A stretch of 64,000 bases of DNA from Perna viridis (Eukaryota), in the NCBI GenBank assembly GCA_037379345.1, contig CM074517.1:31496001-31560000 (forward strand). Direction: 5' to 3'. A model generated the notes under the pieces. That model was not told the origin of the DNA. It searched no databases and was given only the letters and a program-made list of their open reading frames with translations. Position numbers and translations under genes: made by a program. Shown in pieces: positions 2,630 to 53,772 of the stretch (the stretch's first letter is position 1; every line of letters starts with the position of its first letter).

Positions 2630-5409
2630 TTCCTTTAAGAATGGATGTTTCACTGCTAAACAGAGGTAGTACTGATCTAACGTACGAATTAAATATACTT
2701 TTTTTTATAATGTATTCATATTTATTAATTGATCAAAAAGATTTCTGATCAAATACATGTATTATGGATGTAAAATCAGTGTCGCACAACAGTGCATCCT
2801 TCGTCCACTTCATGTTTCTCTCCAGATTTGTACAATAATGAGTCATATATATTCTGAAACTTTTTTTTGTTTTTGTTTTGTTTTGTTTTAGTTTTTTTAT
2901 ATTATTCTTGGGAGAAGACTTCATACGTTGGTAAAACTTGTGTTCTATTCCTTTTGTGAAGTTAACAAATAAAATCGTTGTAAACTAAACTGGAATGCTT
3001 CGATATCGACCTCGAACGAGTTTTGAAAGATTTGACTCCATAACACAGTGGTTAAACATGCAAAACCTGCAGAATAAACTATAGTATTATCTTCTAAATG
3101 GTTTTCTTAACTAAAGGGATGACCATTTGTTGGAGTGTTGTTGCAGTTTTTAGCAAATAAACAATTTTAATATCACTTTGAAAAGTAAGGAATGACAATT
3201 TGTCTACTCGTTCACACTTCTACGTCCACGTCCCGGACCGTGTCAGGGGTATTCAAACTTCGCTGTACTTTTATTAATTCTATGACTGATGAAGACTTGT
3301 ACAATCCTCATCATGGCTTGTCCTTGTCAGACGGGCAAGGGTCAAACTTCCCCGGACATTAATCGTGTAGGCCTGACCGCGTCATTAGCACATAATGATT
3401 TAAAACAAAGATAAAATAACGAGAATTCTTGTGGTGGATTATTTATATTCTGGCTTAAGATAGAGGACACAAACAATAATGAAAATAAATGATATTTATC
3501 ACAAGATGTCGTTTTCTCGTGTATATTTCTCGTACCCTATATGTTTTGGGAGCGTATTTTTGACAGGATGTCATGTTTTTGATAAAGGGTTCATTTTTCT
3601 GTCAAAACGAACAGCACTTGTTGATTTTAGGAACTTGTGACTTTTATATTTTTGTATCAAATGATCTTTTTGGAGTTTTTTTGTCCGTATCGAAGTGACC
3701 ACTTGCGTGTGTGGTCCTTCAGCTCCAATTTTGATTTGACTTGAAGTACACTTTCGCGAGATAACGTTTCCCCAATTGCTCTAGCCACTGCTAGAGTTAA
3801 TTGCTAACTGTTATACTTACTTTTTATTCTTGACTTGGGTATTTAAAAACGGTTTTGACTTTTTTTTCATGTATTAATGATTTCTTATTTTGTCGTTCGA
3901 TAAATGTTTTTCTTCCCTTGGCTGATGATTATCGCGGTTTTAATAAATGAATATATTCACGGATATGAATTTAATTGTATTGAGAAAAAAAATTATTATT
4001 ATTATTTCGTATTGTAAAATAAAAGTTTCGGGATAAATATTGAATTACATCGATTGTAGATTTGTGCTAAGACACATGTTATGATCAATGATCCAAATAG
4101 TAGTCTTCCAAAAAAGTGGCTTCGTTTTCAAGAAGTTATATATGAACCATCGATTTTATTCATTTAAATTGAACATGTTATATGAATTGAGTTTCGAAGC
4201 AAGCCAATGTAAAGGGATCTTCAAAAAACTATGCCCACTTTGACTGAAAGCGCTGTAAACACTGGATTTATTACATAACCGTCTTTTTACCATTTTTGAA
4301 ATTTCAGTTACAGGGGAATAGACCTGTTTATATAATTGTAAAATTGTAGTTATTTGCTAGCAGTTACAAGCCAGTGTGAAAAGTGTACTTTGTAAAACAA
4401 ATACCAAAGAAGATAAAAGTTTTTTTTTCATGGAAATTTCATGGGCCATTGTGACTTAATTAAACGTTAATCAAAACTTTTTTGGGGCTCATTTTCAAGG
4501 ACATAATTATCTTAGACTATGAGAAATATCATAATAAACAATTTCAATATACATTCAGATTTACGATAATTTTAGGGCCAAATACCACCATTATCATCTA
4601 TGGTTCTTTGTGGAATAGAATAAAGTAGAATCAAAATTTGAATATTGTAGACTATATACATTCATGCATGTGGTTCCACAAAATAGAGATTTTAGTGGAT
4701 TGTTTGATCAGAATGCAGGACTTCGTCCCATATAATTTCTAACTAATTAAGCAGATTATCCTCTAAATAGAAAGCATTTTAGCGCCTGCAAATCAAATAA
4801 TGATCTAAGAAAAATATGTGATAGTTCATGAAAAACATTGACCATACGTTTAAGATATTTGAAGACAAATTAATTATGTCTGGAATATTGTAGTTATTTT
4901 GTAATGCAATGTCGTACAAATTAAGTATTAAAGCGTATCTGATACAATCTGTTGTTTTTCTTTGATCCATCATGTAAGGCGTTAATTATCTATAATTAAG
5001 ACAACATCTTATCACTTTAAATTATCCGTAGGAAATTTTCCAGTTTTACGACAATGCCCGCCGGAAGGAACGAATTACGGAAATCATGATTGTTAAACCG
5101 AGTGTGAGAAAGTATTATTTACATCTCCTACTGAATTGTAAGATATTTTGTAATTTTAACATTTCCTGAAAATGTGCTTTGACTTGCCTTGAGAGTTCAA
5201 ATTTACTTTAATTTATTACAATTTTGCAATTAAGTATAATTTTTATATGCAAGATTACTGAGTTGTTTTTGGTGTGTAGTCGTCATACGATTGTTTGTGC
5301 ACTGTGTATGTTTTTTTTTTCTTTGAATTGTATCTTTTTGGGGGCTATTACTTGTTAGTTTCAATAAATGTTCAATGTTCGCCCTTTTTCACAAAATAGT
5401 TTTATTTTA

Positions 5410-5685
5410 TAGCTGGTCGAGTGGTCTATGGCGCTGGACTTTGTCAGATGGTGTTGCCATAGGTGTCACAGCGGTACGAGTAGCTCACGTTATCTTCCCT
5501 GTATCAATTTGATCCGATGGGGCAGTGTAGCGAATAGAGTCGTCACATTATGAGTCGTATACCTGAAAGATGTTAGAACTCAAATTTGCAAAGCAAATGA
5601 ATTTTTCAGACCCTTCTATACTTACATTATCTTCCCTGTATCAATTAAATTGATCCGATGGCGCAGCGTTGCGAATATATAGTCT
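5410..5685 (+). mobile_element. Rearranged copy of the tRNA-cassette direct-repeat element
   Basis: tRNA-like head 5410-5481 matches 15112-15183. The tail CGTTATCTTCCCTGTATCAATTTGATCCGATG occurs twice (about 5488 and 5625). 5569-5599 is the reverse complement of 15210-15242. Confidence 0.8.
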
Positions 5686-12000: not shown

Positions 12001-12526
12001 TCGCAACTTTTCAACACCGCATCGATTCTAGAGTTGGAGTGTAGCTTTGACTTGATTATATATGTATACATGCATCCTTGTATTAACATACTATGTTGAT
12101 CCTCACCGTGCATGCTATGTATCTACATAGTAATGCACTAACAAGTAACATGGTAGCGTTGCCACATCCCATTAGACTTCTTATATGTATTATATACTTG
12201 GTGTGGCTGTATTTGTATAATGTTGCAGATCGTCTACTATCTAACCCGATACCACCAGAGGTTGCCCTATTCAGTTACATCATGTGCTAATGTTCGCGCT
12301 CTGAATTTACTTACGAGAAAGTATCACTCGGTTAACGAAAGCTGTATTTTTAAAGCCTAGTTGGCCGAGTGGTCTAGAGCGTTGGACATTGCAGGCGGTG
12401 TTGCTATAGATGTCAGAGAGAAGGGGTTCGAATCCCGCTGAGGGAGTAACTATATTTGCATCGCAAATTTGCAACCTTGCATCGGCTCTAGAGTTGGAGT
12501 CAAGCTTAGACTTCATTATATATATA
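12001..12526 (+). mobile_element. Direct-repeat element with internal tRNA-like Pol III cassette, TA-repeat associated (subfamily B)
   Basis: 60-bp direct repeats at 12001-12060 and 12461-12520 (49/60 identical), each running into TA repeats. A-box-like TGGCCGAGTGG at 12362 and B-box GGTTCGAATCC at 12425-12435. Confidence 0.8.
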
Positions 12527-12962
12527 ATATTTGTTTATTTCTAAAGTAAAGGTAAAATTATCGAATAATCTCTACACAAGATATTAATCTTCTGACTCTG
12601 GCATTGAAAAAAAAGAACGGATATTGGGAAACTCAACAAATGCACCAGCGTACAACCTTAATAGAGAATTTTAGATACTTTCAGAGAACACCAAAAAGTC
12701 TTCAAAGCTAGTGTAAACACACCTGTTGTTTGTTGAGGTATTTCATGAAGATAATTGAATGTATTATTGTACAAAATTTTTGATAAGTTTTGTTTTGCGT
12801 GTAACATTTGGCATTTTTCTCAAATATTTGTAATTGGAACTTGTCTTTTCTTAATGTTTGTTCTTTATCCATCAATAATTGTTATTATACATTTTTGTTT
12901 ATTTTTAAAGAGACAATGATAATTAATTCAAGATGAAATATATAAAATTTAGTATCAGTTTG

Positions 12963-13007: not shown

Positions 13008-14862
13008 TTGACATTGACCATTGTCAACACTTTAATCATTTTGTTCAATTCTTCAAAATATCATTTTAAAAATTATATAAGATGTCAAAGTTTCAGTTTT
13101 CTTGCATTTTCCTAAGGGCACTAATTTGTCTGGAACACAGACACATTAATGTTACACGAGGATTAAGTTTTCAATGTCGAATGGGGCAGTGGGATTAAAA
13201 ACATATTATCTCATGACATGTAATTGAAAAATAGTATTGAAATATGAACATACAAGCAATTAACAAACATAAACTGACAATTAATTACCTACAAATTGTG
13301 ATGAAAATAGTATTTTATCACTCAGTTGGTTATATGAAATTTTCAAAATGACAGAATGACAAAATATAGGGATTAAGTCATCATTTTATTTGCAAGCAAA
13401 TAGTTTTTTGTTATACATTTCCAGTCCCATTATAATGATATACAGAAAAATGTATAGAAAAGGTATGGATTTACAAAAGATAATGGCTGTTTTCTGTCCC
13501 CAAGGAAGACTATGGGAAATAATTTATGTATTTACTGAAATGAATGAACTATTTTAAAAGAAAGGGTTTCCTGTTCCATACATTCAGCATTTAAAACATG
13601 TGATAACAATGAAGAGTTTTCAATTATGTCAAAACGATAGATATGCATTCAAGTGCATATATTGGGTAAATAATGAAAACAAGAGTTGTGAATGGACAAC
13701 CTTGTCTCATCGTTTTTTTTTTTTTTGTTTTTTTTTTGTAAAGGAAGGAATTAACGAATACATATTAATTCAAGTATTTCTTAAATGCTCGAGTTTCAAC
13801 TGAATATTACAGCTAATCAAATGTTCAAAGTAGTTTTTAAATTAAACATTTTTCGTAAACCTTTTTATTTTTGTTTAAAGATATAATAATGGGTTTCGGA
13901 GTGTATCAGGGAAATATTAACATCCCGGACTTTGTGGGAATGTGTTATTATTAATTTATTGAAATAAGAATATATCATTATGACATTCAAACACCACAAA
14001 CTGAAAGAAAATAGATTAGTACATAATAAAGGAATTGTTTCTGAAATCAATTCTCACATTTGTCGAACAGTTACATGACATTCGCGGTAATACATCAGCT
14101 CTGGTCGACATATCAGCTATGACGACACAACTCATAAGGTGCAGTAGTATGGGAAAATTGTAGCTAGCTTTGACAGATCTTAAATCATTTAATGAAACGT
14201 ACAAATTACTAGTGATGGACACTGAATTATGTGACACTAGGTCCTACAATGTTAAGCGTCTTGTAATATTTCGATTAACAACGATTTTACACGATATGCT
14301 CAAGGCCATTAGAGGATGATAATGACGTACTCATGCCTTTATCAGAATGTTTGGTGTTAAAGATAATATCTAATCGACAACATAACTGTTAATCAAGATA
14401 TTCGTCAAAATAGAAATGAGCACTTCGCTTTGTATGATAAAAATATAACTTATGTTTAAAAACGCTACAAAAATATGAATATTTTTCTGTTCACGACAAA
14501 TAGAAACATATTTTGTATAAAACAGTATACTAGTATATTGTGTGTAAACAAGCTTAAACGCATGGATTCGTGGAATCATGTATTCCACTGGTCAGACGTG
14601 AAGTGTTCCTTTTTCAATGATTTATGTAAATAAAAAATCTTTTTATATCTCAACTTAAACCAGTGAGTCATGGGTTGTAATTGAAACAAACTCAACCTTG
14701 TTGATTATCAAAAGCAAAAGCAGCTAGGTTTTAGTATATGTGCCATCAAAAAGACTTTAAAATATAAAGATCGAAGGAGTTACGAAAATGTTGATATGCT
14801 CGACTGAGCAAAATAAATTCGACGAATTGCGTTTATTAGTTGTTTATATATATATATATAAG

Positions 14863-15347
14863 TTTACGTTATCTTCCCTGTATCAATTTGATCCGATGGA
14901 GCAGTGTAGAGGATAGAGTCGTCACATTCTGAGACGTTGTATAATATTGATTTGTTGTGACATGCATCATTAATTTGATCCTCTATCCTAAATAATAACA
15001 CCCAGATGAACTGTCCCGTACTACCATACATCGTGTACTAAGTTACAGCCCTAGATTAATCCTACGAGGAGGAATCACCCGGCCAGCGAAAGCTATATTT
15101 TAATATAGCCTAGCTGGCCGAGTGGTCTAGGGCGCTAGACTTAGTGCAGGCGGTGTTGCCATAGATGTCACAGCGGTACGAGTTCGAGTCCCGCGGAGGG
15201 AACGGCAAACATTTGCTTCGCAAATTTGACAGTTCTAACATCGTTGGGTTTTTTTCAGACCCTTCTATAAATTTACGTTATCTCCCCTGTATCAATTTGA
15301 TCCGATGAAGCAGTGTAGAGAATAGAGTCGTCACATTCTGAGACGTT
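14863..15347 (+). mobile_element. Direct-repeat element with internal tRNA-like Pol III cassette inserted in (TA)n (subfamily A, intact)
   Basis: 76-bp direct repeats at 14863-14938 and 15272-15347 (73/76 identical, period 409), with (TA)n on both flanks. A-box TGGCCGAGTGG at 15115 and B-box GTTCGAGTCC at 15182-15191. Confidence 0.85.
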
Positions 15348-16153
15348 ATATATATATAATTACGGAAAGTTTTGGTAATGCTAGGCTGTTGCGCAATATT
15401 TGTATTGCAGACATGTTAGCGACATGCATTACTAATGATTAAATTGTTAATGCTTCTTTTAGTTATAATTTCTAAGTCAGGCAAACGATTAGATAGGGGT
15501 TTCCAGTGATACACCTTGTAGTTACCTGATTTAAAAAAAATATTTCCCATGGTCAATTTCTGGTATTATATTTTTGTATGTCAGTGTAAAAACTTTCCGA
15601 GTAATGAAAAATAAAAAATGACAGCAAAGCAATTTGCTGTCGTTAAAAACCGTTTATGGTCATTCGGAAAACAATAGAAAGAAATCTTCACACATTTAAT
15701 GTAATCCTTATGAAATATGTTCAGATGTCAATCAAGATTTATGTAGCAATAATAATCAATAACAAATATATACTTGGCACGTTGATCCCTAAAATTGATT
15801 TTGACCGCAATAAAAATGTTCGGTGTCAAACAATCAAGGACATCTTTGCGTAAAACGTAAGATATTTAAAAAAAAATCCCAAAGAAATAGGGAAAAAAAA
15901 CACTTAAAAAAATCCATACGCCACAAAGTTTTTTTTTATCAAATATTCGAGTAACTGAACATAATAAAAACTGCATTTACAGCTTCATTCAACTGTCTCA
16001 ATTTTGTAACTGTATAATATGCAAATATAGTGTGTATGTGTGTGTGTTTGTGTGGTAACACACTTAAGTCGATGTGCCTCCAAAACTGTAAGATTAGGGA
16101 AATTCTCCCAGACCCACGGAGGCTAGAGCTTAAACACAGAGGCCCAGCCGATT

Positions 16154-27188: not shown

Positions 27189-27839
27189 TTACGACCTTTC
27201 AATTTCCGGTTTTGAAAGCACTGGTTTGTGCAAACTCAGGGGCGATGCTGATGACAGAAAAGCAGTAGCTGGTGCTAGTGAAGATGAAAGTCCTAAGCTA
27301 GGTACACCACATGTGCAAGGTTTTCCGGAAGCGATACCACAAACACCTGAAGGATGTGCAGATTCCATCCAAGGGAAATGCATTTTTGGGACGGAGGCAA
27401 TAGAATGAGTTGGTGTCGAGCTTGACAACGGTGAGCTAGATTCTGCTGTAGATACTGGACGGTGGAGTGATTCAAGGCCGGGTCTGTATATAGGTGAACT
27501 AGTGTCGAAACCGGGTACTGGTCGCAGGGGGGAGCTAGTATCAAGACCGACGAATGGACGGTGTAACGGACTGTTCATTGATTGTAGAAGGTCAAGGCGA
27601 GGCTGAAGTGGACTTGACAAAGGTGTGAAAGCTGAGTTTCCAGAAGACGGAAGTCCACCGAGACTAAGGCTTGGATATGACATAGCAGCAGGATTTGGAA
27701 AGCCATAAGGGTATGATGCTTGGGCGGCGGCAGCAGCGGCAAGATAGGCGTAGACCTGTGGGTCAGCTGGGATTCCGTACGGCCATGTCATTGCCATGCG
27801 TTGCCTCTTGTCTTTCATGCGTCTGTTCTGGAACCAAAC
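27189..27839 (-). CDS. Evx: even-skipped (Evx) exon 3: homeodomain helix 3 and Ala/Pro/Ser-rich C-terminus
   Basis: Acceptor TTCTTCAG|GTT; [26 protein letters not shown] followed by poly-Ala, as in Eve/Evx proteins; stop at 27189. Confidence 0.97.
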
Positions 27840-28088
27840 CTGAAGAAAAAAAAAGAAGATAAGTTTCAATCGTCTATCTGTTCAAAAACGTAAACCTTAC
27901 AGCGGCATTTGTTTCTGTTGTTAATTTAGATATCACATTCCATTTCTACATTCTGATATTGCTTCTTGTCTTTACCTTGGTAAAATGTTGCTTCCTGGTC
28001 CTCGAGTTTTGTTTTGCTTTTCATATTTTAATAAACAACTACTAAGTGAACTACAAATAATTTATTGAAATTATGTCATAATAAATAC

Positions 28089-42880: not shown

Positions 42881-43804
42881 TCAACTCATCAACCTCATGA
42901 CCGCTATCATAATTGCCGCACAAGACACAACAGTTCCAAGACAAGTTCTTATAACATCATTTCTATATTGTTCATAGATAGTTTTCAAGTTTGCAACATC
43001 AGTGTCAATTTTATTTCTTATCATCTGTAATTGTTTCTCATTATTTGCATGAGCTTCAGTAGCTCGACTTCTTTCTAAGTTCACATCAAGTTTAACATGT
43101 CCTTGAAGCTTCGAAATTTCATCACTAATGTAAGTCTTAATTTGCTTGATTTCAGCAGTTTGCTTTTCATTTTCATTTCTCAACATTGTGAATTCGCTCT
43201 TTTCAAGAATGACCATGTCCTTCTTCACAGTTGCTATTTGTGCCAATAATTGTTGCACCATTATTTCTTGCTCTGGCTTTGTCACCATATTTTTTGTTTG
43301 ATGTTCAATTGAAGTGTTCAGGACTTCAACAAATGCTTCGACCATGCACACAGCTTGTTCTCGTGTAAGTCCAGCATCATTAAACTTATTGGCAAGGGTC
43401 AGTGTATCGAAGTAAAACATTTTGACTTCTTTTGTTGCGGCTGGGTTAATGGATCTCCATGCTTCATCAGATTTTATTTTTTCAGTGTTAGGCGGCATAA
43501 TTACAATGTCAATGGGCTTTTCAGTGACTGGTGCATTTTTTGTTTTTGAAGATGTCGCTGGTGTTGTAATTGGACTCTTAGATAAAGTCAAATTTTCACT
43601 TACTTTACTATCTAAAATCCCAGACGATTCATGACAATATAGTCTTTTTAAAGTTCTGAAAGTACTTTGAAGTGCACCAATGTCATAATCATAGGAAGTC
43701 TGATGCAACCGATTGTGAAGAGAACGTTTTGTCCCCTTACCTAAAAACTGCCTTGTTAGATTACACGTTTTTGTCACAAGTTGATATGGTGTAATTCCAT
43801 TCAT
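42881..43804 (-). CDS. MCUR1: MCUR1/CCDC90-family mitochondrial coiled-coil protein (DUF1640), 307 aa
   Basis: FYFDTLTL..F..AGLTREQA, KKDMVILEKSEF..LRNENEK, KLDVNLERSR and KIDTDVANLKT motifs, plus a C-terminal TM helix and a basic transit-peptide-like N-terminus. First ATG at 43804; acceptor TTTCAG at 43908 suggests a 5'UTR intron. MCUR1 versus CCDC90B not resolvable. Confidence 0.92.
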   Translation of the reverse strand: MNGITPYQLVTKTCNLTRQFLGKGTKRSLHNRLHQTSYDYDIGALQSTFRTLKRLYCHESSGILDSKVSENLTLSKSPITTPATSSKTKNAPVTEKPIDIVIMPPNTEKIKSDEAWRSINPAATKEVKMFYFDTLTLANKFNDAGLTREQAVCMVEAFVEVLNTSIEHQTKNMVTKPEQEIMVQQLLAQIATVKKDMVILEKSEFTMLRNENEKQTAEIKQIKTYISDEISKLQGHVKLDVNLERSRATEAHANNEKQLQMIRNKIDTDVANLKTIYEQYRNDVIRTCLGTVVSCAAIMIAVMRLMS

Positions 43805-44007
43805 TTTATCGTTTTTTTTTAAGCCAAACGATAATCTTATACAAGCATTTGCAGTTTTGTGACAACGGTAGCAGACTGCAGACACAACACATTTACAGCT
43901 GATTGATCTGAAACTGTAGTTGAAATAAGAGGGATAGCTTGTGGTATTAAACAGGTAACCAGTTAAAAAAAACAGTATGCCATTTCGTAACTGTCCGCTG
44001 AAATCCG

Positions 44008-44410
44008 GAGTAATCAATGGAAGGGAAAACAATATTCTAGCGGAAATCAAAAGAATGTAATCCAGTGACAAAGACCAGACATGGAAACAGGCACATACAA
44101 CAAAATAACCAAGATAGTACGTACAAAGCTATAAAAGTATATGAGCAACTCGGACTCCATTAAAAACTGTGAGCGTCGACCAGGTGTACCGGTAGGGTAA
44201 GCGTCCTCTGCTTTTCTAAAAATACCAAAGTCAAGTCCGGGGTAGACGAAAGAGGAAATGAAAACTATGACACATTGAACAAATAAGTTTTCATGGTGCA
44301 GATGAATAAATACACCGTAACGATCCACGAGTTCACGATGACGACCATAAAACTTCCTAAGTGATGACTTCAATCTTGTGGCGAAATAACCCTTGTTCCA
44401 TAAGCCTAAT
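44008..44410 (-). mobile_element. Penelope-like RT C-terminus and 3' UTR remnant
   Basis: LWNKGYFATRLKSSLRKFYGRHRELVDRYGV followed by AGAAAAGCAGAGGACGCTTACCCTACCGGTACACCTGGTC. Confidence 0.8.
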
Positions 44411-45890: not shown

Positions 45891-46928
45891 TTTTCTATTT
45901 CGTCCTTCAGAACCGGATGTGGCATAGATCCATATGTTAGCCATATAAGAAAAGTGCGTTAACCAACTTGATGTACTATGAACGCACATTCAAATATGGT
46001 ATCCTTCGGATTTGTCTTCTGATCTCTATTTTTGGTTTGTTTAAATTATTTTGGGGTTTAGATTCTCCCGTATATTTGCATGTTTCTGATGGTGCTGACT
46101 GGTTACTTCGGAACACGTGTTGGCATAGTCATGTCGCAACTTGCTATATCATTATAATCGTAATAATTGACAATCTACATTTAGAGCAAATTTAAATCAA
46201 CGACATATCGATTTTTACTGTTTACTTTATGTATGTATATATTTTTCCATTACCACATTGATCGGAAATTCTTAGGTTATTTTTAAATGGAATATACCCC
46301 AGTACCTGTTGCGCATTTGTAAATAAGGCACATTTACTTCAAGGTAAGCTTTTCTTTTCGAAGAAGTGAGTGTAGACATTTTAAAAGGGGTATACAGCAA
46401 AAAAGGGACTCCAAACTATTATTTGCACAAATTGTCCATGAAATAAACAATGTTTATTCCAACCCCTGGACCCCGGAATCTACCGCTGAAGGTGGGCCCA
46501 CGGGGTATGGAATATATATGTCATACTCAAATGTAAGCTAGCAATAATAATAATAAGTTTGTTAATAATAATAAAACAATTTGCTAATAATCAAATAAAA
46601 AACAACTGGCTAATAAACAAATACAAAGACTAAATTACTATAAATCGATACATGCATGACTTTTCTGAATTCCGATTTAATAACAATGATTAAGTAAGTT
46701 TCGGATTCATTTAAAGCAAGTTCTTTCTCCGAAAAGGTTAAAAAGAACCATTGTTTTTCGAAATGCTTTTTCCTAGCTCTATTCCATTCTACTTTCTGAC
46801 TACGTGACAGGGAAAATCCTGTCAGTTTTGTGAAAGAACTTTGGTAAATTGTCTGAAATTAATCATTTCAGAACTTAATGCAGAAGACAGAACAACAAAC
46901 ATAACGCAGAGTAGCACATACAATTGTC

Positions 46929-47840
46929 ATGAGTATGCTCTCAGATACGGTTGCTGTAGATGACAATAAAATCGAAGATAGTTTCGAAGAAATAGATTTC
47001 GAAGAAATAGATAAACACAAGACAGAAAAGAACGATCTTGGCGCATGTGACAAGGAACATTCTGATAAACTTAGTTTCAAGAAAATGGTAAAATTCAATA
47101 TCACTAAGCTCTTAGAGGCGAAAGCGTGGATAAGTAGCATGGATACTCTTCCGAATGGTCGAGTTGTAATGGCAGATTTTAGTAATAATAAACTTTATAT
47201 ATACAGCCAGGATCTCGAAAAGCAAAAATCAGTGATTGTGCCTGGCAAACCATGCTGTCTCACAGTCTTAGACAATGAAAAAGTCGCAGTTACTTTGCAG
47301 GAGAAAAGTTCTGTGGCTGTCATTAATATCATGACTAGAAAAACTCTTCGATTTTTGAAAACGCCAGACAGTTGCCATGGTATCACATATTGTGATGAAA
47401 AAATTGTTGTAAATTGTCTAGAAAGTGGATTACAGTTTATGGACACATGTGGTAAAATTAAGACTACCGTTTCCGATGTGACTGGAGAGGCAAGTCTTTG
47501 TTCTTGTGGAAATGAGTATATTTACTGTTCAGTGTACTGGTCGCATAAAATATTGTGTTATAACAATCTCGCGGAGGAAATTTACAGTTTTTCGAACTTG
47601 ACAATTAAATGCCCTCGTGGCATTGCTATACATCCGTCAGGACAAGCTTTAACCACAGAGTTCGCCAAGAATAGAATTCATGCAATTAACACAGAAGGTA
47701 CGAAATCAGCTGTTGTTCTGTCAAAGAAACATGATATAACTAATCCCTTGTGCATTTTATTCAACATACACGATGACTGTCTGTATGTGGCTAATAATGA
47801 CGGCGAGTCAGTGACGATCTACAAATATAATAAAACCTAA
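46929..47840 (+). CDS. Stand-alone NHL-type six-bladed beta-propeller protein (like the TRIM-NHL C-terminus), 303 aa
   Basis: Blade motifs LPNGRVVMADFSNNKLYIY, PCCLTV, CHGIT, CPRGIAIHPSG and NPLCILFN..LYVAN, with an acidic N-terminus. Plausible 5'UTR intron 46344-46871 (AAG|GTAAGC ... TTTCAG). Confidence 0.85.
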   Translation: MSMLSDTVAVDDNKIEDSFEEIDFEEIDKHKTEKNDLGACDKEHSDKLSFKKMVKFNITKLLEAKAWISSMDTLPNGRVVMADFSNNKLYIYSQDLEKQKSVIVPGKPCCLTVLDNEKVAVTLQEKSSVAVINIMTRKTLRFLKTPDSCHGITYCDEKIVVNCLESGLQFMDTCGKIKTTVSDVTGEASLCSCGNEYIYCSVYWSHKILCYNNLAEEIYSFSNLTIKCPRGIAIHPSGQALTTEFAKNRIHAINTEGTKSAVVLSKKHDITNPLCILFNIHDDCLYVANNDGESVTIYKYNKT

Positions 47841-48361
47841 ATCTTATTTTTAAATTCATTTTTTTTAGAACCAGCTCGATTGGCATTACCGAATGTAAGT
47901 GGAGGTGGTTTGTTTGGACCTTATTTTTGTTATTCTTGTGCATATTTGAGGCAAAAATTAAACCAATAATAGTCAGGAACCTTTGTTTTTTTTGTTTTTT
48001 TTTATATAAATATTTGCATCCTCAGAAAGATCACAGGAACACCAACTATATATATCTCAAAAGTGGGCAAAAAATTTGTTGTATTATATTCTTTAATCAG
48101 GGAAGGTATGGTTTTAAATTCATTACATGTTGGTAATATCTGCACTATCAAAATAAATATGGAATTCCTAAAAAATGTACACACAACATGCAAAGTTGGA
48201 AGAAGAATCGAAAGCAACCATTGTTTAACGTTACCCACAAAATAAAATCAAAAGCCGTGAATGAATTTAATTTGTGTATACAGAGCAAATAAAAGTCAGG
48301 CACACATAGTAAAAACATATGCATATACCAGAGAAACATATTAACACAAGTCAGTAACCTA

Positions 48362-48838
48362 CGGAAGCCCATTAGTGCTAGGTGTTCACTTATTTTTATG
48401 TCGTTATAACGACTTAGTATCTCGTTTAAACGACTTATTGTCTCATTTAAACGACTTAGCATCTGGAAGACTTTCAATTTCTACATTTTTAGCTTTTTTA
48501 AAGGGCATAGTTCTCAAAATTGTAATGACAAAAGTGAAATATTTCAAATTTCAATTTGGTCTGTCTTTGGTGGTGAATAACAATATAACCAAATTTGAAA
48601 TAATTCCATTGAGATTATAAAAAAAACACGCAAGATATGTCGTTATAACGAGATACTAAGTCGTTTAAACGAGATACTATGTCGTTATAACGAAGATACT
48701 AAGTCGTTTAAACGAGTTAGCTATGTTGTAAAAACGAGATACTAAGTCGTTTTAACGAGATCCTAAGTCTAAAAACGAGATATTAAGTCGTTATAACGAC
48801 TTAAAAATAAGTGAACTCCTGGCACTAATGGGCTTCCG
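48362..48838. mobile_element. TA-TSD MITE (Tc1/mariner-like) with subterminal ~21-bp repeats
   Basis: TIR CGGAAGCCCATTAGTGC.AGG.GTTCACTTATTTTTA / TAAAAATAAGTGAACTCCTGGCACTAATGGGCTTCCG, flanked by TA; arrays of AACGAGATACTAAGTCGTTTA. Confidence 0.9.
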
Positions 48839-48840
48839 TA

Positions 48841-49417
48841 GAAGCCCATTAGTGCCAGGTGTTCACTTATTGTTATGTCGTTATAACGACTTAGCATCTC
48901 GTTTAAACGACTTAGCAAACTCGTTTTAAGTTTAAACGACTTAGTATCTGGAAGACTTTCAAGTTCTACATTTTTAGCTTTTTAAAGGGCATAATTCTCA
49001 AATGACAAAAGTGAAATATTTCAAATTTCAATTTGGTCTGTCTTTGGTGGTCAATAACAATGTATCCGAATCTGAAATAATTCCATTGAGATTATAATAA
49101 AACAAAAACAAACAAAAAAAAACAAAAAAAAAAAAAACAAAAAAACAACGCCAATTATGTCGTTATAACGAGATCTTAAGTCGTTTAAACAGGTTAGCTA
49201 TGTCGTTTAAACGAGATACAAAGTCGTTTAAACGAGATACAAAGTCGTTTAAACGAGTTAGCTATGTCGTTATAACGAAATACCAAGTCGTTTAAACGAG
49301 ATACTAAGTCGTTATAACGAAGATACTAAGTCGTTTAAACGAGATGCTGTCGTTTAAACGAGTTAGTTATGTTGTAAAAACGAGATACGAAGTCGTTTAT
49401 AAACGAGATACTAAGTC
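48841..49417. mobile_element. Second head-to-tail copy of the same MITE, right TIR missing
   Basis: Starts GAAGCCCATTAGTGCCAGG directly after the first copy; same core, longer 21-bp array. Confidence 0.85.
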
Positions 49418-50049
49418 TTATGACGTATGACGTAAAATGCCTTAACAAACCCTTTAAATATAGTTTATGATATTACGTCGTCTGTCAATTCTGTGGTAAC
49501 TTTAAACAAAAATACTGGCATTCCACATGACCAATAGACGAAGTGCTTAATGATGGACCCATTTAGAGAAGACGGATTCCATACGATAGTAGCTCGTAGA
49601 ACATCTCAATACTCAATGGTATCCAACTGAAACCTTTGCTCTTTCAACAAACGTTATCAAATAATGCTATGCTGACTTTTCGTCTTCATTGACACAAAGC
49701 TTCCGCGCTTTGATTATTGTAAAATTGCTCTTTACTTATATTTGTTCAAAACAATTTAACGCATTATTAGACATTGCGCAATTTTCATATGTTATGCACA
49801 AATGAGTTTTATTTGAAGGTTTTGTGTGTAAACAATCTTTTAATTGTTAAAGTAAGAACAATCCTATTTATAGATATTCACAATCGATATTTCAAGATGT
49901 TTAAACTTAAAAAATAAGTAATAAAAACAATTCTTCCGTATCTACAGAAAACAATTATTTAATTGTTGATGCGTGACGATCGGATACCAATCGCCGGTGT
50001 TAAATTTCCTTAAATCATTTCCTTTTTATCAGGTCTTCCTTGTTAAGAA

Positions 50050-52477: not shown

Positions 52478-53772
52478 CGGGGCGCCGAATGGGGCTCTTG
52501 TAGTTTTGTACTCACAATTCAATTTTGTACAGACAAAAGTCGTTTTTTTTTTCAACAAAAATTAATTCCGATTGACAAAATTTATAAAATACTACAAATT
52601 TTCAACTTTCAAAAGTCAATGCTGTGGCACAAAATTCAACTTTGTGAGACAAAATTCAATTTTGTGTCACAAAAATCAATTTTGTCAGACAAAAGTCAGT
52701 TTTGTGTCACATTTTGTGTTTGCAAATTAGTTTACAGAATTCTTTGAATACGCAAATGAATTCTGTCATCACGATTTTGTAAGATTTCTCATTGGAAATA
52801 GTAACCTCAGGTTTCCGATTACTTCGAGCAACGCAGGACGGTTAAGGCCGTTTTAAGTGAAATTTAAAAAAAAATCTTATAAGTTGTTTCTACAGTAAAA
52901 CTGTTTTGAAATGACTAAAATTGCTATTATACTTTTTCTGTGAGATTTGTTTGAAAAATCAGGTTTTAGAATACGCGATTTTTCTACTTTCGATTCATTG
53001 GGATTTCTCCTGGTGAATCATGTGATCATTTCCTGACATCTTTCAACTCAACTATAAAATGCTTTGCCCGACCTGTTAATCGTAATCAAATTTTTAAAAA
53101 TTTGACAAGATAATTTGTATTTATATATTTGTCCCAAATTTTGCTGGAAAAAGAAATGAAATATCAGATTAGCCAAGAAAATCATATTAGAAATGTGTTG
53201 TGTGGTGAAATTTGTTATCTGTCTAAGTCGGCGAAAGATTATTTGTTCCACTATCCCTCACGATTTTTTGCCAGATACAGATAGATTCCTTATTTCATTC
53301 CGATTTTATTGATGTACATTTTGTATGACACAAAAAATTCGGTTGAATGGAACAAGATAAAGTGACACAGTGGGTTATACAATTACGATATCCAATATTT
53401 CTTTCACCTTTCACTTATGTGCTTTATTAAAACCGTGCACATTCGAACCATATCCACTGTATTGCAGTGACTGCTTTAAGTTTGTAATACACGTGTACAT
53501 GATGCTGCACATTTTGAATTAATTTGCATATCCAAAGGATTTTGTAAACTAATTTGCATACAAAGTTGACTTTTGTGACACAAAATTGAATTACGTCTCA
53601 CAGAATTGAATTTTTTGACACAGAATTGAATTTTGTGACACAGAGTTGAATTTTGTCTCACAGAATTGAATTTTGTGACACAGATCAAATTGACTTTTGG
53701 GACATAGAATTGAATTTTGTGACACAAAGTTGATTTTGATCACAAAAAGATCAAGTTCCATTCGGCGCCCCG
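52478..53772. mobile_element. 1.3-kb TA-TSD non-autonomous DNA transposon with subterminal ~20-bp repeats
   Basis: Perfect TIR CGGGGCGCCGAATGG / CCATTCGGCGCCCCG flanked by TA; inverted arrays of AAATTCAATTTTGTGTCACA at both ends. Confidence 0.88.

Follow-up and report, generated by a model that had tools for sequence, protein, structure and literature searches.

The hairpin formed by positions 15074-15087 and 15113-15126 of the window, the 64,000-nucleotide stretch of the Perna viridis genome analysed here, is likely (probability about 0.55) the stem joining the 5' and 3' ends of a Pol III RNA one unit long, a structure that would enable the reverse transcriptase (RT) of a Penelope-like element to jump from the start of its template to the end. 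This reading builds on established features of the repeat in which the hairpin lies: its unit structure, the tRNA-Leu origin of its head, the intact promoter boxes, the inverted leader, the pairing shared by subfamilies A and B, two 3' ends, a cluster of 5' ends and a variable junction. More tentatively, and at slightly less than even odds, the element would be a ribozyme-free counterpart of retrozymes, in which Pol III terminator and start abut, the RNA ends are clamped by an antisense tRNA head, and the whole is copied as a pseudo-circle by the telomerase-related Penelope RT.

Units and copies of the repeat family

The A and B hairpins both sit within a dispersed, non-coding repeat, with unit lengths of 409 bp in A and about 460 bp in B. 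In the window, subfamily A is represented by 1.2 circularly permuted units between (TA)n tracts (14861..15358, plus strand) that include a direct repeat (14857-14947 / 15266-15357, 93% identity), and subfamily B by about 1.15 units at 12001..12530 (+). A rearranged A fragment at 5410..5677 (+) has a head that starts at the junction, without the leader. The junction pattern has at least 2,082 exact matches in the genome and a control pattern has none; head patterns match 2,130 times for A and 58 times for B. The best A matches are 96-98% identical and the best B matches 85-90%, and the family occupies about 0.5% of the 723-Mb genome (2,070 of 400,000 sampled bases). Outside the P. viridis genome, in a searched set without related animal genomes, one metagenome and two viral-contig pattern matches were obtained, all by chance.

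Inserts are circular permutations of the unit, reach at least two units, often carry inverted 5' pieces and mixtures of A and B, and terminate 3' in (TA)n. The 3' ends of 90 A copies anchored on the head fall at unit positions 399-409 in 32 cases and at positions 74-87 in 24. Both preferred ends are AGAC...TATA motifs, 87 nt apart, that usually continue into (TA)n. The first lies at 15256..15269 (+) in the window, adjoining (TA)n; the second, at 15302..15350 (+), coincides in part with what may be a decayed minimal hammerhead, changed at three core positions. The window A copy has T7 at the internal T-tract 15249-15255, where most copies have T5.

The family combines properties of several classes of elements. 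It has the tRNA-related head with A and B boxes of tRNA-derived SINEs, the short tandem non-coding unit of non-LTR retrozymes, and the partial tandems, 5' inversions and microsatellite targets of Penelope-like passengers. The head-to-tail colinearity expected of SINE inserts is absent: 55 of the 86 listed A copies carry upstream unit sequence, and 3' ends are internal.

The window also contains a homeodomain C-terminal exon at 27189-27881 (-) (Pfam Homeodomain, E 9e-4), presumably of even-skipped to judge by its motif; long open frames at 42881-44128 (-) and 46905-47840 (+) with CCDC90-like (E 1e-47) and NHL/beta-propeller matches; and 21-bp and 20-bp tandem arrays at 48360-49425 and 52610-53760, in both orientations.

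A tRNA-Leu head with an inverted leader

The heads of A and B align to the genome's own tRNA-Leu(UAG), and both promoter boxes are intact in each subfamily. In the window A copy the head spans 15108..15200 (+), with the A-box at 15115-15125 and the B-box at 15182-15190; the corresponding boxes of the B insertion are at 12362-12372 and 12426-12434. ARAGORN called no tRNA in the window, and where B has changed at the tRNA D-stem, its leader carries the matching change; both observations support an earlier proposal that the hairpin blocks tRNA-like folding. The tRNA-Leu genes themselves are organised in tandem arrays (G000:C6:6661035-6776058 and C7:14452028-14543562) with periods of about 1,087 bp and 700 bp, and some C7 copies (L200) diverge past the anticodon loop and are likewise uncalled by ARAGORN.

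The leader repeats the tRNA head in inverted and degenerate form, with a side hairpin, Y, inserted in it. Its arm X (15028..15055, plus strand) has partners at 15126-15148 and 15164-15168, followed by hairpin Y (15060..15073, plus strand; 3-bp closing stem) and arm Z (15074..15087, plus strand), the 5' arm of the hairpin under study. The equivalent parts of the B insertion are Y at 12309-12322 and Z at 12323-12336. Pairing of the B leader with the B head gives 28 Watson-Crick and 7 G-U pairs and no mismatch. The leader probably arose as a fold-back copy of the head, and fresh perfect fold-backs are found at the leader-head site of two loci (L080 and L153). Leader and head alleles are linked across the junction in 34 of 35 A1 and 30 of 30 B copies, and A2 leaders occur with a B head in 1 of 74.

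A fold shared by both subfamilies

The sequence-only reading that drew attention to the hairpin described its arms correctly: all quoted strings are present at 15074-15087 / 15113-15126 in A and at 12323-12336 / 12360-12373 in B, and so are the inner stem (15092-15109) and the CYTACGAG and CGAAAGCT boxes. Compared by folding with shuffled sequences, the hairpin has z -3.89 in the A copy (0 of 200 shuffles equally good) and z -3.63 in the B copy (1 of 200). Its description has to be amended by a C-A mismatch inside the A stem (15079/15121). Position 15076 is G rather than C in 90-93% of RNA reads, and C is carried by 9 of the first 100 listed pattern matches. The window A copy is a member of a minority sub-lineage, and since most copies have G at 15076, the third pair of the stem is broken in most of them. 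The inner stem of the window B copy has decayed to 3 bp; it is intact in most B copies.

Subfamily consensus sequences were built from 33 A1, 45 A2 and 34 B copies, and are predicted to fold alike across about 240 nt. According to these predictions, the hairpin is only the tip of a plus-strand fold kept in A and B, consisting of an outer helix, a long leader-head rod, side hairpin Y, the stem described above, a GAAA/CWA internal loop and the inner stem. The 5' arm of the predicted outer closing helix (15008..15015, plus strand; partner 15228-15235) has changed in sequence in B with its pairing kept, and the internal loop and inner stem (15088..15112, plus strand) hold the hypervariable junction. 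A short palindromic hairpin common to A and B is predicted at 15210..15227 (+).

When the A1 fold is mapped onto B, 69 of 81 pairs are kept, of which 58 are the same, 6 carry one-sided and 5 double changes. All six one-sided changes lead to G-U on the plus strand. Eight pairs are broken versus 18.2 expected (0 of 5000 shuffles as low), and four further pairs meet gaps. The reverse mapping is weaker (16 broken versus 24.2 expected, P 0.004), and double changes alone are marginal (P 0.036; reverse direction P 0.12). These values describe a single comparison of two lineages, below the grade of an R-scape analysis. In alignment-wide shuffles, which ignore relatedness and leave out arm X (one column out of register), the percentage of paired positions was equalled in 0 of 500 and the number of pairs with a double change in 353 of 500; neither figure is taken as proof. 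B favours the plus strand (-91.9 versus -71.4), whereas A is neutral (-98.5 / -101.4). The stem of hairpin Y shows double changes in B at two of its three pairs, and its 8-nt loop UACGAGGA is identical in A and B.

We note a further conserved element, GATCCTCTAT at 14977-14986, which is identical in A and B despite divergent flanks. Its UCCUC could pair with GAGGA of loop Y (15066-15070) in a 5-bp pseudoknot; the predicted fold pairs UCCUC elsewhere.

It had been proposed that the leader is selected as RNA structure, and that read-through or circular transcripts exist. The plus-strand pairing kept between the subfamilies bears out the first proposal, with the leader recast: most likely it is the 3' terminus of the RNA transcribed from the unit before. 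For that reason read-through or circular transcripts, which may still occur, are no longer required.

Ends of copies and the variable junction

For the 5' ends of A, head matches on contig C1 were taken in list order, namely the first 30 plus 60 of the following 70, leaving out three segmental duplicates, the last seven matches and four further duplicates (n = 86). Fourteen of the 86 begin 13 to 6 nt before the A-box T (15102-15109) versus 3.2 expected, the commonest 5' end being -12, the A directly after T5 (15103). In the broader interval -22..-5 there are 21 versus 6.7 expected; seven lie within -22..-14, five of them blurred by adjoining (TA)n. A second, weaker group of ten listed A copies begins at -75..-58; with a background this uneven, a Poisson P of 7e-6 overstates the significance. 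A majority, 55 of the 86, reach past -23, and the B copies have no 5'-end cluster (4 of 29). TA microhomology was rejected as the source of the A cluster, as 1 and 0 ends, versus 2.7 and 1.9 expected, fall on the two remaining TATA sites of the unit.

The junction itself varies in length. It is off the modal length in 50 of 142 copies versus 9 of 222 at the unit's other T5; two more controls vary in 5 of 254 and 4 of 145 copies, and one further control in 80 of 214, of which 71 are a single lineage-specific indel. A1, A2 and B share the recurrent variants, which are T4, T6, T4 plus one base, and a start 2 nt later.

RNA-seq reads cover the leader-head junction, as the sequence-only reading had asked of its hairpin. 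Three runs contain about 2,900-3,500 family reads per 10-13 million, in both mate directions, with continuous depth across the junction and no pile-up of read starts or ends. Between 62 and 70% of family reads continue into unlike sequence. This pattern fits passive inclusion in host transcripts and is no test of the terminal stem. In short reads, the boundary between tandem genomic copies looks the same as that of a circle.

A probable terminal stem and its alternatives

The observations can be combined as follows. Pol III would begin transcription some 12 nt ahead of one unit's A-box (putative start 15103-15108, plus strand) and stop at the T5 of the next unit, the presumed terminator being the T-tract at 15098-15102 (12347-12351 in B). 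With start and stop at the loop, the two free ends of the RNA would lie there as well. If the unit is cut at the junction, its first 7 nt are predicted to pair with its last nucleotides, leaving four U unpaired. A terminal stem with a short U overhang is the anatomy of Pol III RNAs such as 7SL, 7SK, Y and vault RNAs. With nicked (TA)n as primer, the enzyme would begin at an internal TATA site and copy back to the RNA 5' end, where it would either stop, giving the 5'-end cluster, or jump to the adjacent 3' U-tail, giving a variable number of T and an extra base at the junction. Internal priming of this kind would copy head-side sequence only, unless the enzyme resumes from the RNA 3' end. A master copy can be transcribed only if a full unit comes after its head, so every successful lineage must cross the junction; only inserts that reach far round could be transcribed again, which would select for leader-head pairing. 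The jump would be favoured by a panhandle keeping the RNA's two ends side by side, which would account for the joint change of leader and head. Against this stand the RNA ends unobserved in the three RNA-seq runs and the missing 5' cluster of B. Moreover, a second T5 in the A unit, upstream of either priming site, would have to be read through under the model; the B unit has no other runs of T4 or longer, a difference that is not significant (P 0.15).

Alternatively, the panhandle may present its ends to a host ligase, the template then being a covalent circle as in animal retrozymes. We consider this unlikely. It accounts for the permuted and tandem inserts and the variable junction, and fits four clean dimers with identical, modal-type junctions; retrozyme circles are formed by RtcB in vitro, as far as the accessible text of PMC7229834 goes. 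Successive junctions within one insert can differ, however (L209, L267), and many copies stop at the junction. The ends of Pol III RNAs are also unsuited to RtcB: they bear a 5'-triphosphate and a 3'-OH and are not its substrates.

An equally poor prospect is that read-through multimers, from leaky Pol III or from Pol II, serve as templates, and that the loop is a true hairpin apex, nuclease-cut in RNA or cDNA or prone to slippage, which would give the 5' ends and variants. The unbroken RNA-seq depth across the junction and the many copies extending past -23 suit this explanation, the loop is an AT-rich palindrome, and A must read through one T5 regardless. Yet the commonest 5' end, at -12 on the purine after T5, is the start expected of a tRNA-type promoter, other hairpin loops are invariant, and the kept pairing is left unexplained.

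It is very unlikely that the stem is a neutral fold-back relic whose complementarity is kept by correction of DNA quasi-palindromes. Its fold-back origin is evident and only two lineages enter the comparison, but DNA correction would remove the plus-strand G-U pairs to which all six one-sided changes lead and which B retains alongside no mismatch, and both hairpin Y and the outer helix covary outside the inversion. The jump of the RT at a terminal stem remains the preferred reading, ahead also of the ribozyme considered next.

Search for a ribozyme

Least probable of all is that a new self-cleaving ribozyme, made up of the three-way junction, its invariant UACGAGGA loop and the GAAA/CWA loop, converts multimers to monomers: loops are unchanged while stems covary, the closest known elements use a ribozyme here and the B leader resembles a Neptune hammerhead, but no Rfam ribozyme appears at E<=10, there is no hammerhead core, that resemblance is equalled by 23 of 300 shuffles, and the ends centre on the loop rather than on CWA, where many B copies have A at W.

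The suggestion of a hammerhead-like core around the CYUACGAG box has to be abandoned, as no Rfam ribozyme and no CUGANGA box was found on either strand of the A and B units. The box forms stem and loop of the covarying hairpin Y, and its first bases lie in that hairpin. In its CUUACGA and CCUACGA forms it has U at the G5 position; mutation of G5 is a standard inactivating control for hammerheads (available text of PMC10085705). A hammerhead of classic or rearranged block order was rejected; a repaired box before the stem gave 18 genomic matches versus 7 for the control. Stems I-III also fail: with the sequence that follows CWA paired to the one preceding GAAA, stem I is missing. Nor is a type I hammerhead, the hallmark of retrozymes, present in each unit: only a possible decayed minimal core exists in A, and none in B.

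An Rfam scan for the unpermuted forms of HDV-like, twister, twister sister, pistol and hatchet ribozymes gave nothing at the gathering score or at E<=10, and supposed resemblances to twister sister and hatchet were dropped for want of Rfam support. On the minus strand an HDV-like reading, with Y resembling P3/L3, was rejected on inspection: it has neither P1 nor a catalytic C strand, and the minus-strand fold of B is worse by 20 kcal/mol. Derivation of the leader from a Neptune hammerhead was rejected on the 23 of 300 shuffled units that score as well. Processing of the RNase P type, also put forward earlier, is unsupported.

Two observations concern other hammerhead-like sequences. A module found only in A (14893-14938 / 15302-15347) reads as a minimal Penelope-type hammerhead with core changes at the U4, A9 and A14 positions. 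A different abundant repeat family (L109-L118) has a hammerhead-like core ending GAAACGTT; of the 776 pattern matches, most among the first 100 show it.

A candidate Neptune-type partner

A candidate source of the RT is an 897-aa ORF with an RT domain and GIY-YIG at its C-terminus (Pfam E 3.8e-6 and 1.5e-4, both just below the curated cut-offs), the nuclease domain being preceded by a CxxxCxxC cysteine linker. With these features the ORF marks a Neptune-type Penelope-like element, the clade features being those given in the accessible part of PMC8557442. Two alternative 3' ends, separated by about 85 nt and both of the form TTTAGACTT-TATA, are present in the Neptune family (L127, L138, L145), and A likewise ends at two AGAC...TATA sites resembling the Neptune motif. 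Beyond this short end motif, A and B have no homology to the Neptune 3' end. Direct fusions of A or B to Neptune are found at six loci (L032, L068, L076, L089, L129 and L146), and in L129 and L146 the A head begins at the junction. A or B pieces occur in 6 of 24 Neptune loci versus 10 of 120 random tiles (P 0.029); this co-insertion is a weak point of the terminal-stem reading, as shared (TA)n targeting would also give it; Naiad elements use the same target.

Relation to known elements and significance

Among the closest known elements are Sm-alpha and Sj-alpha of Schistosoma, which have a tRNA-derived internal Pol III promoter and a unit of about 300-450 bp (PMC6765202, PMC2770079; available text). 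According to the same text, they depend on tandem copies to propagate, one unit's promoter serving the unit after it, which the P. viridis element would have in common with them. Monomers of Sm-alpha are cut by a canonical hammerhead, and its head is tRNA-Gln; the P. viridis element has no such hammerhead, and its tRNA-Leu head is paired to its own antisense copy. Animal non-LTR retrozymes, including those of Mytilus galloprovincialis, are similar in their non-coding, 150-450-bp tandem units and highly paired RNA, and are proposed passengers of Penelope-like elements (accessible parts of PMC7229834 and bioRxiv 10.64898/2026.07.22.740005). They are defined by the type I hammerhead that is lacking here, and retrozyme-type circles stay hypothetical in this element; the preprint, in its available part, mentions neither tRNA nor polymerase III.

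Neptune, Naiad and non-autonomous forms such as MRC1 share partial tandems, 5'-inverted copies, (TA)n targets and alternative 3' ends (PMC8557442, available part). Unlike MRC1-type forms, the element is no deletion derivative of Neptune and brings its own Pol III promoter. Bivalve tRNA-SINEs also have a tRNA head with A and B boxes and a length of 200-700 nt; their head is 5' and their LINE partners are CR1, CR1-Zenon, L2 and Nimb, and neither Penelope nor Leu is mentioned in the accessible text (PMC11481361). The element works like Sm-alpha and retrozymes but fails their hammerhead test and the colinearity of SINEs. A literature search, with most subscription papers, Repbase and supplements outside its coverage, found no description of such an element.

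The element bears on how Penelope-like partial tandems form, by template jump, circle or multimer, and on whether their hammerheads are needed (PMC8557442, as far as available). As a passenger that is short, young and abundant, its ends predicted and its terminal stem covarying, it puts both questions within reach of a test, and it would widen the partners of SINEs beyond LINEs. If the proposed reading is true, the element would represent a third route, beside LTR strand transfer and ribozyme circles, by which a complete element is obtained from internal priming, and would be a natural substrate to study the formation of Penelope pseudo-LTRs.
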